DNA of 64,000 nucleotides, taken from an uncultured cyanobacterium (GTDB taxonomy: Bacteria; Cyanobacteriota; Cyanobacteriia; Pseudanabaenales; Pseudanabaenaceae). Positions 1,920 through 9,425 of the stretch are shown piece by piece. Position 1 is the first letter of the stretch; every line of letters begins with the position of its first letter. The notes beneath the pieces are model-generated. The model ran no database searches. It was not told the DNA's origin and worked only from the letters and a program-made list of their open reading frames with translations. Position numbers and translations under genes: made by a program. The stretch spans positions 1,216,001 through 1,280,000 of the forward strand of contig OY969811.1 in assembly GCA_963703315.1 (NCBI GenBank). Reading direction: 5' to 3'.

Positions 1920-3176
1920 CTATGGATCAACCCAGCGATCGTCGGATTTGATCAGCGCAATCAACTGCTCTACACCTTCAGCTTCAGGTACGCGCTTGAT
2001 TTCTTCTTTGCCACGATAGAGCGAGATGATTCCAGGGGTTTTGCCAACATAGCCATAGTCTGCATCTGCCATTTCCCCAGGTCCATTAACGATGCAACCC
2101 ATTACGGCAATGTCTAGACCAACCAAATGGCTAGTAGCTTCACGGACTTTATGTAGGACTTCTTCTAGGTTGAATAAAGTACGACCGCAGGATGGACAAG
2201 CGACATATTCGACCATCGTTTTGCGGAGTCCGAGGGACTGCAAAATGCTATAGCAAACAGGGATTTCTTTTTCGGGGGCTTCGGTGAGAGAGACGCGGAT
2301 GGTGTCACCAATGCCTTGAGATAATAAGGTGGCAATACCTGCGGTGGACTTGATCCGACCATATTCACCATCACCTGCTTCGGTTACGCCTAAATGTAAG
2401 GGATAGTCCATGCCAAGCTGATCCATGCGCTTGACCATCAGTTGATAGGCGGCGATCATCACAGGAACACGGGATGCCTTCATGGAAATGACGATATTTC
2501 TAAAGTCTAGATCTTCACAAATCCGAATAAACTCGATCGCAGATTCGACCATGCCCTGAGGAGTGTCACCGTAGGTAAATAACATCCGCTCGGCAAGTGA
2601 GCCATGATTTACGCCGATCCGCATAGCTTTACCTTGTTCTTTAAGGCTCAAAACTAAAGGCTTAAGGGTATCACGGACTTTTTCGGCGATTTCGTCAAAT
2701 TCTGATTGGGTGTATTCGGTGCGATTTGCTTTGGGTTTCTCGAATACATATAAGCCGGGATTAATGCGGACTTTGTGAATATGCTTGGCGACTTCGAGGG
2801 CAATTTTCATACCGTTGTGGTGGACATCGGCAACCAGAGGCACATCAAGATAAGTACGTTTGAGCTTTTGACGAATTTCTGAGAGTGCGGCGGCGTGAGC
2901 CATGCTAGGGACAGTGACGCGCACAATTTCGCAGCCAATTTCATGCAAGCGGCGAATTCCTGCTACGGAGCCATCAATATCGAGGGTATCTTCATTAATC
3001 ATCGACTGTACTACTACAGGTGCGCCGCCACCGATGGTGATATTGCCCACTTGTACAGGTCGGGTTTTGCGTCTGACGATTACACCAAGATTTTCGTTGC
3101 CATCGATAATTGGTTCAGCTTGGGCGGGTTGTGTGCCGTTTTGGATGCTTTTTGTATTCTCAGAAACAGTCGTCAT
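1920..3176 (-). CDS. ispG: (E)-4-hydroxy-3-methylbut-2-enyl-diphosphate synthase
   Basis: [44 protein letters not shown] and [10 protein letters not shown] motifs. Confidence 0.97.
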
Positions 3177-3404
3177 AACACTTTTAGTTACTTTCAGTTA
3201 TTAGTTTATCTGAAAGTAGGTAAAATATAGCTTTATTCTTGTCTTTAAATATAAGGATATAAAAGGTGATTGTGCTAATGCCGATCTCGCTATTCACCGC
3301 TAAACTAAAAGTATTGTAAAAATCTGACAAAATTGGGATACGGTCAATACACTCGCCAATTACAGTTCCATTTTAATATTTCAAAAATAAAAGCTAGTAA
3401 AGCC

Positions 3405-6400
3405 ATGTCATCCTCTCCATCACAACCTGCAACTGATTTGCGCGAGGCTTACCGTGTGTGTGAGCCAAAGCCTTTAAATGGAGATGATTTTGAAAAATAT
3501 TATGAGCCTTTATTGGATGAGAATGATTTTGATGCAGTAAAAGCGATCGGGGCTTCTCTATTTGTGCAGGAATTGGGAGAACATAAGACTTTTTTTCTAG
3601 CTGGGCATCGTGGTTGTGGCAAGACAACAGAATTAAATTTGCTTGTAAAGAATTGGGGTGAAGATTATCATGTGATTTACATTGAAACTCTCAATATATT
3701 AGATATTCACAATATCGACTGCATTGATATTTATTTACTCGCTGTATTTTATGTTAATCAACATATAGATAAGTATGAAATTAAAATTGAGATAAACATT
3801 ATCAAACAATTTGAAGATGTTATCACTAGAATTATTCGTTGTGCTACAGGATATTCTAATGGACAAAAACTTGAAGATGAAATTTCTTCGTTAAGATATA
3901 TTGCAGAAAAAGAGGATAGTAGAAGATTAGAGTTGCTAACAGGTTTTGCGTCACTTTTGAATGGAATATTACTTAAAATAAATAGATCAGAAATAATTGA
4001 TGGATTGAATTATTCATCGACTTCAGAGATGTTGAACCATGAAAAAATTACAACGTATAGAGAAGCATTTGCTCATTATAAAGATGAGTTTAGGGATATA
4101 TTTGAAGTGCTTTTAAATGATTTTAATAAAGCACTTAAAAAACAGAACAATAGCTGTAAAGGACTTTTAATTATATTCGATGATATTGATAAATGTGATT
4201 CGGATACAGCTAAGATTCTTTTTCAAAATCAAATAGAAAATCTTTTTGAGATTAGGTGTAATGTAATCTACACTGTTCCAATATTTAGTCTGAATTATTT
4301 GGAGGAAACGCATCAAAATGTTTTCCTTATTCCACTGTTAAACATTTATAAATTTAGAGAATCTGAACTACAGCCACAGATAAATAACTGGACAGTTCAA
4401 AAAATTACAAATTTGTTGAATCGGCGAGTTGATATAAATGTTTTATTTGATTCAGATAAAATTATATACAAACTAATTATTTCTAGTGGAGGTCATTTAA
4501 GAAACCTATTCATGTTATTGCAACTCTCATATATATCTGCAATTGGCAGAGGTAATAAGACCGTTAACGAGATAGATGCTAATTATTCAATTGAACACTT
4601 TCAGAATGATTTTGAACGTTATATTCCTTCTGAATTGTATTATGACATCGCTAACTCTTTCTATACAAAGGCTTTGCAAAATGATTCAGCAGCTTTAGCT
4701 GTGTATGCGGGGGTAATATCGCAATACCGTTATAAAAAAAGAGACTGGTTGTTCCCAAATCCTATTATTTTACAAATTGATAAATTCAAAAATGCGCTCC
4801 GTGAAGTAAAAAAATTATCAACGGAAATTTCAGAATCCAAACAACTAGATTATTCTTGGCGAAACTTGGTGATTGTAGAAATTGAACTTAAAAATATTCG
4901 ATGCTTTGAGAATTTGAAAATAGATTTTACTGAAGCTGATAAACTTTCTGATTGGTTCATGATTTTGGGTGAAAATGCCGCAGGAAAAACGACTTTACTT
5001 AGAAGTATTGCTCTTGGACTATGCGATCAAAGTGATGCTGCTGCTTTAATGTCATCTCTGCGTGGAGATTTAGTACGAGATGGTGCAGATGAAGGCTCTA
5101 TCAAGATCGTGTTGTGTAACAAAGATGCCTCACAAATCCCCCTTTTGCGATCGCAACAACTACGTCGAGCATTACTAAGCGCTTTTCCAACTATCTCTAA
5201 ACTTAAAGCCCTCAAAAATGCTTTACCAGAAGAATTAGGTCAACCCTCACCATATCCTAGCCTTTCCGAACAGATTGTTGAGATGATTGGGCGTGCAAAC
5301 ACAGAAGAAAAGCTTGACGAGTTAATAGCGATCGCTCGTCAACAAAGTCCAGATAATCGATCTTTGCAAAATCTAGACGGAGATAACCAAACAAATACTT
5401 ATACGATTACAACTACGATTACCAAGCAATCGGAAAAAAGTGAAACTCTTACCCAAAAAATTGAGCCAGAAATTGATTTTCTGTGGTCAGATATTTTTGT
5501 ATGTGGTTACGGGGCAAATCGTACTACCCAAACTTACACAAATCATGAAGGCTACCGCAGCCTTGATGCTGTGCAATCATTGTTTACTTCTCAAGTCTCT
5601 TTTCAAGATCCAGAAGTAGTTTTGCGGCGGCGCAGCGATGAAGTCCGCAAGCAGATCGAACAACAATTACTCAAAGTACTGATGCTTGATGACCATGCCG
5701 AATATCAGTTTCATTACAGCGATCGCGGTATCGAAGTCGATGGTCCTTGGGGTAGACAGCCCCTTGCCGCGCTCAGTGATGGCTATCGAAGCACTAGCCA
5801 ATGGCTGCTGGATTTTATTGGGTGGGCTGTTCATGCTAATCGACTTACAGAAAGCGGTAATATCGGCGGCATTCTGCTCATAGATGAAGTAGAACAACAT
5901 TTACATCCTCTTTGGCAACGTTACTTTGTGCAGCGTTTGCATGAGATGTTTCCTAACACTCAAATTATTGCTTCCACGCATACACCTCTAGCAGCTTCAG
6001 GAGTTGCTGATATCGAGAGCGGTCTTCTGGTGAAGCTAGACCGTAGCCCTGAAAACGGTGTTCAAGCTAAGCTAATCAACAAAGAAGAACTATATGGTAA
6101 ACGTGCCGATCAGGTACTGACTTCAGAGGCTTTCGGCTTATTTACCAGTCGTAATCAAGGCAGTTTGACTGACATTGATCGCTACTCTGAACTACTTGGT
6201 CATACTCAACTAACAGCAAAAGAAGAAGACGAATTACAGGAATTACGCGAAAAGCTGCAAGACAGTCTTCAAGATGGTGAAAATGCTACAGAAAGATTAG
6301 TCAGGAGAGAAGTGGAATCTGCTATTGAGAAAACGGCAAGCGATATTACGCCTGAATTGCTGGAGCTAGAAATCGCCAAACACCTACAACAGCTTTCTAA

Positions 6401-6413
6401 TCAGGGGGCTTAG
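3405..6413 (+). CDS. Two-NTPase fusion: N-terminal P-loop NTPase plus C-terminal AAA_21/PtuA-like ABC ATPase with an inserted EAD1-like domain
   Basis: First module: Walker A GHRGCGKT, Walker B IIFDDIDK. Second module: IELKNIRCF, GENAAGKT, LSDGY signature, LLIDEVEQHLHP, STHTP. ATG 3405 preferred over TTG 3333. Confidence 0.8.
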   Translation: MSSSPSQPATDLREAYRVCEPKPLNGDDFEKYYEPLLDENDFDAVKAIGASLFVQELGEHKTFFLAGHRGCGKTTELNLLVKNWGEDYHVIYIETLNILDIHNIDCIDIYLLAVFYVNQHIDKYEIKIEINIIKQFEDVITRIIRCATGYSNGQKLEDEISSLRYIAEKEDSRRLELLTGFASLLNGILLKINRSEIIDGLNYSSTSEMLNHEKITTYREAFAHYKDEFRDIFEVLLNDFNKALKKQNNSCKGLLIIFDDIDKCDSDTAKILFQNQIENLFEIRCNVIYTVPIFSLNYLEETHQNVFLIPLLNIYKFRESELQPQINNWTVQKITNLLNRRVDINVLFDSDKIIYKLIISSGGHLRNLFMLLQLSYISAIGRGNKTVNEIDANYSIEHFQNDFERYIPSELYYDIANSFYTKALQNDSAALAVYAGVISQYRYKKRDWLFPNPIILQIDKFKNALREVKKLSTEISESKQLDYSWRNLVIVEIELKNIRCFENLKIDFTEADKLSDWFMILGENAAGKTTLLRSIALGLCDQSDAAALMSSLRGDLVRDGADEGSIKIVLCNKDASQIPLLRSQQLRRALLSAFPTISKLKALKNALPEELGQPSPYPSLSEQIVEMIGRANTEEKLDELIAIARQQSPDNRSLQNLDGDNQTNTYTITTTITKQSEKSETLTQKIEPEIDFLWSDIFVCGYGANRTTQTYTNHEGYRSLDAVQSLFTSQVSFQDPEVVLRRRSDEVRKQIEQQLLKVLMLDDHAEYQFHYSDRGIEVDGPWGRQPLAALSDGYRSTSQWLLDFIGWAVHANRLTESGNIGGILLIDEVEQHLHPLWQRYFVQRLHEMFPNTQIIASTHTPLAASGVADIESGLLVKLDRSPENGVQAKLINKEELYGKRADQVLTSEAFGLFTSRNQGSLTDIDRYSELLGHTQLTAKEEDELQELREKLQDSLQDGENATERLVRREVESAIEKTASDITPELLELEIAKHLQQLSNQGA

Positions 6414-6415
6414 AG

Positions 6416-7315
6416 GTGAGGAAAATCTTTGTTCAGGAGCCAGATAGTGACATCTGGAAGAAATGGATTCGTGATTGTCAAGAAGAAACCAAAAAGGCAA
6501 TAGATTCAGTTGCTAAAGGAGAAAGACCAATAGTTAACGAGAATCTATACAAGAGAGATAGTATTAAAAAGAGCTATTTTGTTAGTAGAGATGCACCATT
6601 TTATGGGCGTTGTGCCTATTGTGAAACCCCAATTGCTGACACTCAATATATTCAAGTCGAACACTTTCGCCCCAAAGCAGGAATTAAAGATGAGAATGGT
6701 AGAGTGATTAATCTCAAGGATGAGAACGGAATTGATACAGGAAAACCACACCTTGGGTATTACTGGCTAGCTTACGATTGGCGAAATCTACTTCCTTCTT
6801 GTGCAATATGTAATCAGCCGAAAAGCACGGTCTTCCCAGTTGTTGGACGACACGCTCAAATTCCTAGCGAAGAATCAAACGAAAGTCCCCTACTGATTAA
6901 TCCAATCAGCGAATTAGAAAAGGATAATCCAGAGCATCATCTATCTGTTGATATAAACACTGGGATTATGTATGCTGTGAATGAAAGTTTTCGGGGTGCA
7001 ATGTGTATCCAGATTTTCAAACTTAACGAACGTGAACAATTAGTTGATGGAAGAAAAAATATACGAAGAAACTCTAATGCGATGATCATAGAATTTCAGA
7101 ATGCCCACACAAAACTTTCTGATCCAACCTATTTGAAAAAGCAAGCTTATCAAGAAATTATCGAACACTATGAAGAATTAATCGGTGTTTTTGAAGGGAA
7201 GAAGCCCTACACGATAGCTTATTTGAGCATATTGCGGAAACAAGGTTTTTCAATTGAGTGGCTTCAGAAACAATGCCAGATATTTCAAGATCTTCTTTCT
7301 AAACTTGATCACTAA
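6416..7315 (+). CDS. HNH endonuclease (PtuB/retron-effector-like)
   Basis: CAYCE...VEHFRPK...YYWLAYDWRNLLPSCAICN...K; GTG start 2 nt after the ATPase stop. Confidence 0.85.
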   Translation: MRKIFVQEPDSDIWKKWIRDCQEETKKAIDSVAKGERPIVNENLYKRDSIKKSYFVSRDAPFYGRCAYCETPIADTQYIQVEHFRPKAGIKDENGRVINLKDENGIDTGKPHLGYYWLAYDWRNLLPSCAICNQPKSTVFPVVGRHAQIPSEESNESPLLINPISELEKDNPEHHLSVDINTGIMYAVNESFRGAMCIQIFKLNEREQLVDGRKNIRRNSNAMIIEFQNAHTKLSDPTYLKKQAYQEIIEHYEELIGVFEGKKPYTIAYLSILRKQGFSIEWLQKQCQIFQDLLSKLDH

Positions 7316-7408
7316 TAGCGATCGCATGAAAATCATCAACAAAACAAAGGATCTTGGCGATCGCCTACGATGAAGTAACATAATATTGCAAAATAAATAT
7401 ATTTGTCC

Positions 7409-8224
7409 ATGAATTATTTTCCTGCTCATCGATATTTTGCTTACCTTACGTCACCAGCGATCGCCTCTATGCCAGATAAACAAAACGTGGTGATTATTCA
7501 GCCGATGGGGGCGATCGAGCAGCATGGCGCACATTTACCATTAATTGTTGATGCGGCGATTAGTATTGGGGTGTTGGCAAGGGCTTTAGCAAAATTAGAT
7601 CCTGCGATTCCTGCCTATGCTTTGCCGCCTCTGTATTACGGCAAATCGAATGAGCATATTGGTTTTGGAGGAACGATTACGTTGAGTACACAGACAATGC
7701 TGGCGGTGTTAACTGACATTGCTGAAAGTGTGCATCGGGCAGGATTTCGCAAGTTAGCCTTGATGAATTCCCACGGTGGACAGCCGCAAATTTTGGAAAT
7801 AGTGGCTCGGGATCTCCACTCGAAATATCGCGATTTCGAGATCTTTCCGCTTTTTACTTGGCACGTTCCCAATGCCACCAAAGATTTATTAACCGCCAAA
7901 GAGTTAGAATTTGGAATTCATGGCGGCGATGCCGAAACTAGTTTGATGTTGGCGCTTTTGCCTGAACAGGTACAAATGGATAAAGCCGTAACTGAATATC
8001 CCTATGGATTGCCTGAGAATAGTCTACTCAGTATGGAATCTGCGAATCCCTTTGCATGGGTGATGCGTGATTTGACTCGAAGTGGAGTGTTGGGGGATGC
8101 TAAAGCGGCAACTAGAGAAAAAGGGGAAAAGATTCTGGATTCTCTAGTTGATGGTTGGGTGCAATTGATTGAAGATATTTACAAGTTTGAGCAACCAAAA
8201 GCATATGGCAATCATCTCCTCTAA
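7409..8224 (+). CDS. Creatininase family amidohydrolase
   Basis: [26 protein letters not shown] and HGGDAETS motifs. Confidence 0.88.
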
Positions 8225-9425
8225 ACCAAGTCCAAATCCTGAAGGCGATCAGAATCAGCAAACTGCTCAAAATTCTGCATCGGCTTCTGAACAAGTTACT
8301 AGCAAAAAATCAACGCGCCGATCGCCTAAAGCTGCATCGAAAAAAGAAGTATCGCCAGAAATGCAACAGGCGTTAGACTTGTTGCAAGCAGAAGCTACAC
8401 CAGAGGAGAAGTTAGAGGATCAACTTGCCAAAAATGAGGCTAATCCTGCGACACCTGACGTTAATATTCGCCCCAAAAATCTTGCTGACTATATTGGACA
8501 AAAGGATTTAAAAGAACTACTTCATATTGCGATCTCAGCAGCAAAATCCCGCTCATCGGCTCTTGACCATTTATTGTTATATGGTCCTCCCGGATTAGGG
8601 AAGACTTCTCTAGCTTTGATTATTGCTCAGGAAATGGGTGTGCAATGCAAGATTACTTCGGCTCCTGCCCTTGAGCGTCCCCGTGATGTGGCAGGTTTGC
8701 TAGTTTCGTTGCAACAGGGAGATATTCTCTTTATCGATGAAATCCATCGTTTACCGAGTGTAACAGAAGAGATTCTCTATCCTGCGATGGAAGATTATCG
8801 ACTGGATATTACGATTGGGAAGGGACAAGGCGCAAGGATTCGCAGTGTGCAGTTAAATAAATTTACGCTGATTGGTGCGACGACAAGAATTGGCGCGTTA
8901 TCTTCGCCATTGCGCGATCGCTTTGGTTTTGTACAGCATTTTCGATTTTATGAGCAGGATGAATTGACCCAGATTGTGTCGCGGAGTGCCAAGATTCTCG
9001 ATACACCAATTCATGACGATGGGGCTGTGGCGATCGCTGCCAGATCAAGGGGTACGCCTCGGATTGCCAATCGTCTATTAAAACGAGTGCGTGACTATGC
9101 CGAAGTGAAGGCGAAAGGTGAACAAATTACAGGGGCGATCGCAGAATCTGCTCTCGAATTATTTAATGTTGATCCGAAAGGACTCGATTGGATTGATCGC
9201 AAATTGCTTACGGTTTTAATTGAGAACTTCAACGGTGGTCCCGCAGGTTTAGATACTCTTGCGGCGGCGACGGGTGAGGATGCTCACACCATTGAAGAAG
9301 TGTATGAACCTTATCTATTACAGATTGGCTATATCAATCGCACCCCACGCGGTCGGGTGGCTACAGCAGCAGCATGGAAGCATTTAGGCTATTCCGTACA
9401 AACTGCGATCGCAGGAATCCTCTAA
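8205..9425 (+). CDS. ruvB: Holliday junction branch migration helicase RuvB
   Basis: [37 protein letters not shown] and TPRGR motifs; start MAIISSK at 8205 preferred. Confidence 0.96.

Follow-up and report, generated by a model that had tools for sequence, protein, structure and literature searches.

An Effector-Associated Domain 1 nested in the ABC head of a Septu-like PtuA ATPase of Pseudanabaena-like cyanobacteria

This work describes a two-gene, Septu-like locus of an uncultured cyanobacterium of the Pseudanabaenaceae and the Effector-Associated Domain 1 (EAD1) that is nested within its ABC ATPase. The locus lies in a stretch of 64,000 nucleotides (nt) (assembly GCA_963703315.1, contig OY969811.1, positions 1,216,001 to 1,280,000 of the forward strand), here called the window, whose numbering is used below. 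PtuA and PtuB form a nucleotide-controlled oligomer that holds or releases an HNH nuclease directed against DNA or tRNA (PMC12819146, PMC12673091, PMC13096335), and insertions in the PtuA proteins of retrons alter both how these oligomerise and how they bind their ligand (PMC12819146). Coupling by Effector-Associated Domains (EADs) involves at least two copies per locus or genome, carried on core and effector proteins and typically located at the N- or C-terminus (PMC7159879); self-assembly of EADs has been proposed (PMC8195603). By analogy with Septu, the locus would be a two-gene anti-phage unit.

Genes and features of the locus

The open reading frame (ORF) of the ATPase is open from a TTG at 3333 and ends at 6413 on the forward strand. 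Its relatives start at the in-frame ATG at 3405, from which a fusion protein of 1002 aa is read, composed of an N-terminal P-loop NTPase and a PtuA-like ABC ATPase with a nested EAD1. Close relatives carry the name Pseudanabaena. PADLOC identifies the part from residue 505 onward as PtuA (E 3.5e-68) and the adjoining gene, which starts 2 nt past the ATPase stop, as PtuB (E 7e-41). The PtuA motifs (Walker A/B, signature and His motifs) are present, with the signature reading LSDGY. The best solved sequence match of the ABC part is 8ee4_A (E 2.8e-17) and the top fold matches are all PtuA, confirming the Septu-like host that a first-pass annotation, made by a model from the sequence, had proposed. 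The ATPase stays below the Ec78-specific NCBIfam equivalog threshold (98 versus 500 bits). An HNH gene comes next in 11/11 insert-bearing loci and in 62 of the 79 loci overall. The features are as follows.

3405..6413, + strand: fusion protein, 1002 aa, PADLOC PtuA
3405..4862, + strand: N-terminal P-loop NTPase, 486 aa, with Walker A GHRGCGKT (3603-3626) and Walker B-like LIIFDD
4863..5114, + strand: first part of the ABC head, with strands, Walker A GENAAGKT (4968-4991), helices and a strand ending in IKIVL
5115..5399, + strand: expanded beta-hairpin loop of 95 aa, consisting of a 10-aa linker, EAD1 and an 8-aa linker
5145..5375, + strand: EAD1 domain, five helices, predicted Death/CARD-like, the sole EAD1 found in the genome
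5147..5154: HIP1 octamer, incidental, within the codons of helix 1
5328..5335: HIP1 octamer, incidental, within the codons of helix 4
5400..6110, + strand: second part of the ABC head, with CGYG..R, LSDGY (5772-5786), Walker B ILLIDE (5871-5888), QHLHP and STHTP
6111..6410, + strand: C-terminal helical region, helices in the AlphaFold2 model
6416..7315, + strand: PtuB-like HNH nuclease, 299 aa, with CAYCE, EHFRPK and W.NL.P.C..CN intact

The locus resembles Septu type I (8EE4, 8EEA, 8SUX) in its adjacent genes, an ABC ATPase followed by an HNH protein, and in having no reverse transcriptase-sized ORF. It differs in the 486-aa N-terminal NTPase, the EAD1 in the head, the signature LSDGY and the N-terminal modules that its relatives exchange, among them TIR, nucleoside phosphorylase (PNP), caspase and Roco. 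The upstream reverse transcriptase and msr-msd that mark Septu type II and retron type I-A were not found: apart from the ispG-like and creatininase-like neighbours described below, no long ORF lies beside the gene pair, as judged from ORFs and with no RNA family search made. The C-terminal helices of solved PtuA proteins bind PtuB (PMC12673091, PMC12819146), and the helical region at 6111..6410 probably does likewise by analogy.

Identity, site and fold of the insert

Over positions 9-84 of its 90, the Pfam EAD1 model (PF19955) matches 5145-5375 alone with 34.6 bits (cut-off 24.2, E 2.7e-8); the whole protein scores 29.7 bits, and a profile built from 41 ordinary cyanobacterial EAD1s gives the insert 44.5 bits. 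The EAD1 resemblance noted in the first-pass annotation is therefore borne out above the cut-off. The loop between IKIVL and YTITT counts 95 aa, versus approximately 11 aa in insert-less relatives. The left junction falls within 5115-5144 and the right one within 5376-5399, with EAD1 taking the place of the short loop. An AlphaFold2 model (43 sequences, mean predicted local distance difference test (pLDDT) score 83.8) has five helices between the ABC strands 82-91 and 184-195, and the domain thus interrupts the ABC head in frame, nested between two strands, at the place already proposed. A search of the ESM Atlas with the insert named nothing (best score 0.82, chance level).

The ordinary helical insert of AAA_21 ATPases, which the same annotation had listed as the finding that would overturn it, was checked and ruled out by position. 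The helical element of retron type I-A PtuA (Ec78/Eco7), a helical flap or coiled coil, spans residues 255-310 with Walker A at 93, i.e. approximately 160-215 aa past Walker A (PMC12673091), and is a parallel in so far as an added helical element there alters oligomer state and ligand binding. In contrast, the EAD1 loop lies approximately 50-145 aa past Walker A, before the CGYG strand, and no retron was found.

Like published EADs (PMC7159879, PMC8195603), the domain passes PF19955, is small, all-helical and non-enzymatic and belongs to a cyanobacterial conflict system. Unlike these, it is nested within another domain instead of being terminal, occurs as a single copy per genome on an ABC ATPase host and has new invariant polar residues. 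Published EAD positions are N-terminal in 133 cases, middle in 66 and C-terminal in 45, so that the between-domain class amounts to 66/244. The word 'ABC' occurs 0 times in the main texts of PMC7159879 and PMC8195603, and 'EAD1+ABC' and 'TIR+ABC' occur 0 times in the supplements of PMC8195603 that were searched.

The model of the 79-aa EAD1 (pLDDT 91) displays five helices instead of six and has no enzymatic motif. By title, 44 of the 50 top VIA-align rows belong to the Death superfamily (CARD/DED/PYD/DD). The best row is the NLRC4 CARD (Z 7.5, root-mean-square deviation (rmsd) 2.9, 76 aligned), with no Z reaching 8 and hence below the tool's caution level; the Azospirillum bacterial death-like domain (8ss1) has Z 6.9, rmsd 2.5 and 75 aligned. 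Foldseek returned nothing at E<=0.001, and its six best PDB rows are Death-fold nonetheless. The predicted fold is tentatively described as Death/CARD-like. Kinship of EAD1 with the Death fold is already in print (EAD1 to bDLD2, p 1.1e-7; PMC8195603, supplement 7). In bacterial gasdermin and related systems, defence proteins carry CARD-like domains that are comparable Death-fold helical bundles (PMC10312443, 8ss1), but these are located N-terminally on proteases, whereas the five-helix domain described here is nested in an ATPase and 15% identical. Prediction of an EAD1 homodimer scored 0.30 and 0.28, short of the 0.42 mark, which counts as 'no answer' and is used neither for nor against any reading.

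Such a fold, together with its likeness to 8ss1, invites the explanation that the insert is an integrated decoy or sensor, which would lure phage proteins that block CARD/EAD adaptors and, on binding them, fire the nuclease. There is a CARD-only phage protein that inhibits a CARD system of bacteria (PMC10312443), and the domain is kept in a host that shows no partner. We nevertheless consider a decoy improbable. No viral EAD1 relative was found in viral contigs (two exact-word scans of low reach) or by phage tblastn with an ordinary EAD1, and BFVD gave no match at E<=0.001. A decoy is also expected to vary fast, whereas the insert is conserved like the ABC core in the window's subgroup and it is the NTPase that varies. 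Finally, phages of a host without an EAD network have little reason to carry such inhibitors.

Distribution and history of the insert

The homologue set comprises 120 listed proteins of 235 found, the window's own protein included. Among those listed, the distance from Walker A to CGYG..R is 175-186 aa in 31, 88-104 aa in 88 and 113 aa in P0034. Searching anew with a focus on the insert yielded 39 matches (33 with full coverage, 6 covering the flank only). When 1.84 billion representatives (50% identity) were searched with a profile, two of the best 150 of 51,418 matches aligned through the insert; 133 of these 150 were new, 125 of them with Walker A, and none had a long loop among the rows in which the second motif was measured. 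A phylum-wide search with the ABC part gave 0/400, a weak negative, as at most three candidates were scored per listed genome.

Trees were built without the insert and midpoint-rooted, with the insert-less relatives falling outside. In the tree of 111 of the 120 proteins (nine near-copies or fragments left out), the carriers and P0034 form one clade with a Shimodaira-Hasegawa-like approximate likelihood-ratio test (SH-aLRT) support of 99, and in a 30-row subset the same clade has support 100/100. Within this clade the TIR-bearing forms lie outside and the P-loop NTPase-bearing forms are nested, which suggests as the simplest order a TIR-PtuA ancestor, then insertion of EAD1 and last the replacement of TIR by the NTPase. 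P0034 is the single insert-less protein among the 32 clade members. Its loop is 18 aa longer than the short loop and its nested placement has support 90 and 80/91, so that it looks like a loss of the insert, with recombination as the alternative cause. By eye, in one pairwise alignment, P0034 appears to have Gln at the likely TIR catalytic Glu of P0024.

The ATPase family gained EAD1 a second, independent time, at the N-terminus and on another branch. This concerns P0097 (residues 4-89) and P0103 (residues 5-90), which are EAD1-TIR-PtuA fusions without the insert.

EAD1 proteins elsewhere in the carrier genomes

The window genome is one contig and 99.67% complete. No second EAD1 was detected in it by Pfam, phmmer, the insert profile or the profile of 41 ordinary EAD1s, the next matches having E 0.76, 0.24, 2.7 and 2. 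EAD1 occurs in 8 of 36 genus genomes, always in the inserted gene and with extra copies in G020 alone; the other 28 show none. Three further carrier genomes, among them that of the TIR-type locus L035, have one EAD1 each, and two other genomes of this further set are repeats of G002 and G018. The inserted copy is thus the only EAD1 found in 11 of the 12 carrier genomes, several of which are metagenome-assembled genomes (MAGs), with a completeness of 73-99.7% where given and with kin that are not independent. As a control, EAD1 was matched in 29 of 301 genomes of the class, including 25 outside the genus, of which 18 have at least two copies and seven have one.

The extra EAD1s of G020 belong to an EAD1-VMAP and an EAD1-trypsin protein. 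With 17% and 25% identity, they resemble the insert of that genome less than they do each other (33%). In L023 (175-3226, G020) an EAD1-trypsin gene, a gene for a small membrane protein and an EAD1-VMAP gene stand in a row as an ordinary VMAP-type locus, whose EAD1s are the only others among the 36 genus genomes.

The first-pass annotation had proposed that the insert may link the Septu-like nuclease to EAD1-tagged partners from other loci, which would join Septu to an EAD1 network, and had suggested listing the other EAD1 proteins of the genome. The published EAD principle (PMC7159879) argues for such a trans adaptor, as do the second gain in P0097 and P0103 and the presence of other EAD1 proteins in G020. 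In addition, the TIR-type inserts are nearest to ordinary EAD1 (up to 77 bits), and adaptation in trans may therefore be the original role. The list turned out empty, however. With neither the window genome nor 11 of the 12 carriers, the tested TIR-type genome included, having the two or more copies typical of EAD coupling, with 28 of the 36 genus genomes showing no EAD1 and with the G020 pair so distant from the insert, we hold pairing in trans to be quite improbable. A trans partner with a different Death-like domain that escaped detection may exist; several of the carrier genomes are MAGs, 73-97% complete or of completeness not given.

Conservation of the insert and block recombination

In profile columns, Arg13, Thr21 and Ser79 are present in 17/17 chosen inserts, versus 7%, 7% and 2% of the 41 ordinary EAD1s; Lys24 and Arg71 are present in 88% of the inserts, versus 15% and 2%. 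These residues are shared despite an insert identity between subgroups of just 36-48%. In the window's subgroup (21 pairs of seven genes) the insert is under purifying selection: the ratio of nonsynonymous to synonymous substitution rates (dN/dS) is 0.13 for the insert and 0.08-0.18 for the ABC parts (0.08 for the second), versus 0.32 for the N-terminal NTPase, which is 53% identical among the seven close relatives.

Comparison of the two NTPase-type subgroups gives 35% identity for the NTPase, 64% for the first ABC part and 47% for EAD1, whereas the sequence 3' of the insert is 89% identical. This block difference points to recombination and is a caution that the trees track mainly the 3' half.

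The N-terminal module

Within the fusion protein, variation is greatest in the N-terminal NTPase, a domain that the first-pass annotation leaves unmentioned. It yields weak matches to KAP, ATPase_2 and AAA_14, all under or near the cut-off. Its identity of 53% is found among relatives that are 83-90% identical elsewhere, and a hypervariable stretch lies between Walker A and Walker B. The corresponding DNA (3405-4862) has a GC content of 0.31 compared to 0.42 for the genome and contains no HIP1 site. The NTPase is a candidate sensor and, if any part does so, it may be the one that links the fusion protein to partners elsewhere.

Five weaker paralogues of this NTPase are encoded in the window genome, the two closest of which stand ahead of TPR genes and are 27-28% identical to the window NTPase and 46-50% to the P0018 type. 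At two loci of the same genome, L109 (4529-7840) and L110 (4496-7589), an NTPase paralogue is followed by a gene with an unannotated N-terminus and C-terminal TPR. These paralogues are a likely source of the fused domain. In 2004 Leipe reportedly described a Npun2340/2341-type STAND pair, in which the gene for an active P-loop NTPase is followed by one with a degenerate STAND module and repeats. The pairs of NTPase paralogue and TPR gene may belong to this family.

Pfam scans of the N-termini of 29 chosen homologues and of 59/70 representatives with long N-termini (survey rows P0035-P0122 and P0136-P0268) revealed a wide range of exchanged modules. These comprise TIR, PNP, caspase, trypsin, CHAT, calcineurin-like phosphoesterase and Mrr domains, and further Roc-COR with or without TIR, AAA_16 with or without TPR, TPR-S, receiver, receiver-GGDEF and sigma-54 activator modules. 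Many N-termini of the host clade have no Pfam match.

HIP1 sites

Highly iterated palindrome 1 (HIP1) octamers do start at 5147 and 5328, as the first-pass annotation had it. Their description as lying near both ends of the domain is loose, since both are inside it, the second in helix 4 and 41-64 nt short of the right junction. With 8231 HIP1 sites, the genome has one every 555 bp, and among 200,000 random draws of 231-bp stretches 5.9% contain at least two sites and 1.9% one near each end, an uncommon arrangement. Across 12 inserted genes, the first octamer is present in three, the second in eight, both in three and neither in four. The second is absent from L027, L029, L033 and L035, and the HIP1-free genes include the sole TIR-type gene that was compared as DNA. 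None of seven insert-less genes has HIP1 in the empty hairpin, four of them lying in HIP1-poor DNA. The suggestion that HIP1 helped the domain to move in is rejected: the sites lie off the junctions, inside helices 1 and 4, are not conserved among carriers and are absent from the empty hairpins. The most plausible reading of the octamers is that they arose later, at positions where the codons permit them.

Genomic context

The neighbouring ORFs are presumably ispG-like (1920-3176, minus strand) and creatininase-like (7403-8224). The gene pair is patchy, being present in 9 of 36 genus genomes, and its neighbours differ in most loci. L027 (3755-11208) shares the site of the window (1920-9425), between ispG-like and creatininase/ruvB-like genes, and holds a different subgroup of the same gene pair, with an ABC part that is 80% identical and a different NTPase allele. 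In L030 (6552-9563, G021) a single stop, close to where the ABC head begins, splits the fusion gene into frames of 505 aa and 484 aa. The HNH protein behind the TIR-type carrier of L035 (6590-7102) has just 171 aa versus 259-302 aa in relatives and is possibly truncated.

A promoter scan was uninformative (18 found versus 15.5 expected). A relative's contig of 917 bases from an RNA library runs unbroken through the insert from 4933 to 5849. This speaks against splicing but is no proof of transcription.

Discussion

We tentatively favour, at somewhat less than even confidence, the reading that EAD1 is an adaptor domesticated in cis, which couples the swappable N-terminal module to the PtuA assembly. 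An ancestor with an N-terminal TIR would have acquired EAD1 in a beta-hairpin on the surface of the ABC head, and the EAD1-bearing gene would later have reached Pseudanabaena-like hosts, where no further EAD1 was detected. EAD1 would have stayed while the P-loop NTPase replaced TIR, no longer recruiting other proteins and acting inside its own complex. The domain may lie docked against the ABC head, adjacent to the N-terminal module, and expose its Death-fold surface, which would tie the state of this module to the assembly or disassembly of the PtuA dimer, and the change in the dimer would release the PtuB nuclease on infection. Going by the strand order of Rad50/SMC heads, the EAD1 hairpin presumably adjoins the start of the first ABC-head strand, so that EAD1 would face outward on the dimer and lie next to the N-terminal module.

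In favour of this reading are the site of the domain between two strands, the single clade of carriers, the lack of a second EAD1 in 11 of the 12 carrier genomes, the low dN/dS in the window's subgroup, the residues that are invariant in the inserts, the joint divergence of NTPase, first ABC part and EAD1 between the two NTPase-type subgroups and, as precedents, the insertions in retron PtuA and the proposed self-assembly of EADs.

Several observations weigh against it. The system can exist without the insert, as the 88 insert-less proteins among the 120 listed homologues and P0034 within the clade indicate. Consensus residues of EAD1 are gone from the window's subgroup (Trp56 to Arg, Gly61 to Glu, Ile40 to Pro), to which the ordinary-EAD1 profile gives 31-48 bits versus 40-87 bits for the TIR types; next to the new invariant positions, the insert seems to be trading an old signature for a new one. 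These invariant residues may, however, be helix caps or reflect common descent. In the second subgroup (three genes, three pairs) the dN/dS of the insert is 0.63, the purifying selection in the window's subgroup can be explained by folding alone, and simple linkage may account for the co-travel of EAD1 and the N-terminal module. Moreover, the defence activity is carried over from Septu by analogy, and every contact proposed for EAD1 is conjectural.

The main rival explanation draws on the same points. EAD1 would be a tolerated passenger in a permissive loop, once perhaps an adaptor in trans, now without a part in defence and kept only since a misfolded insert would harm the ATPase. The frequency of insert-less relatives, the apparent loss in P0034, the decay of consensus residues and profile score and the dN/dS of 0.63 are all as a passenger would have them. 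On the other hand, just one of the 32 clade members is without the insert, despite insert identities down to 36% and a swap of the N-terminal module; polar residues that vary in ordinary EAD1s are fixed in the inserts; and the dN/dS in the window's subgroup is low. We therefore regard a passenger as rather unlikely and retain domestication in cis as the preferred reading.

A Septu ATPase with a loop-nested EAD1 was not found in the literature searched and appears to be new, whereas the kinship of EAD1 with the Death fold is known. The combination of EAD1 with PtuA or an ABC ATPase and HNH is absent from that literature; the architecture may yet be listed in Krishnan et al. 2020 or in Figure 1-source data 1 of PMC7159879, which lie outside it. 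EADs are predicted adaptors, and their homotypic binding rests on genomic pattern in the literature searched. A conserved EAD1 without a detected partner, inside an enzyme of a structurally solved and easily assayed family, is a natural exception. Nature also provides the controls, namely insert-less relatives that are 50-58% identical, the apparent loss in P0034, versions with TIR and with NTPase, and the independent N-terminal EAD1 fusion, so that a two-gene construct with a loop swap can test the function of EAD1.

The Septu clade with exchangeable N-terminal modules is possibly a larger finding than the insert itself; no paper on Septu/PtuA fusions with Roco-type modules was found in the literature searched. 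A more far-reaching possibility, which we think unlikely, is that EAD1 acts as a polymerisation or tripwire switch: on the outer faces of PtuA dimers it would chain these dimers in an inflammasome-like manner, or catch phage anti-CARD proteins, and so cluster the N-terminal modules, TIR or NTPase, that are present at the time. Septu would then be a modular platform with at least a dozen exchangeable sensors or effectors, joined to the EAD/Death-domain immune network.

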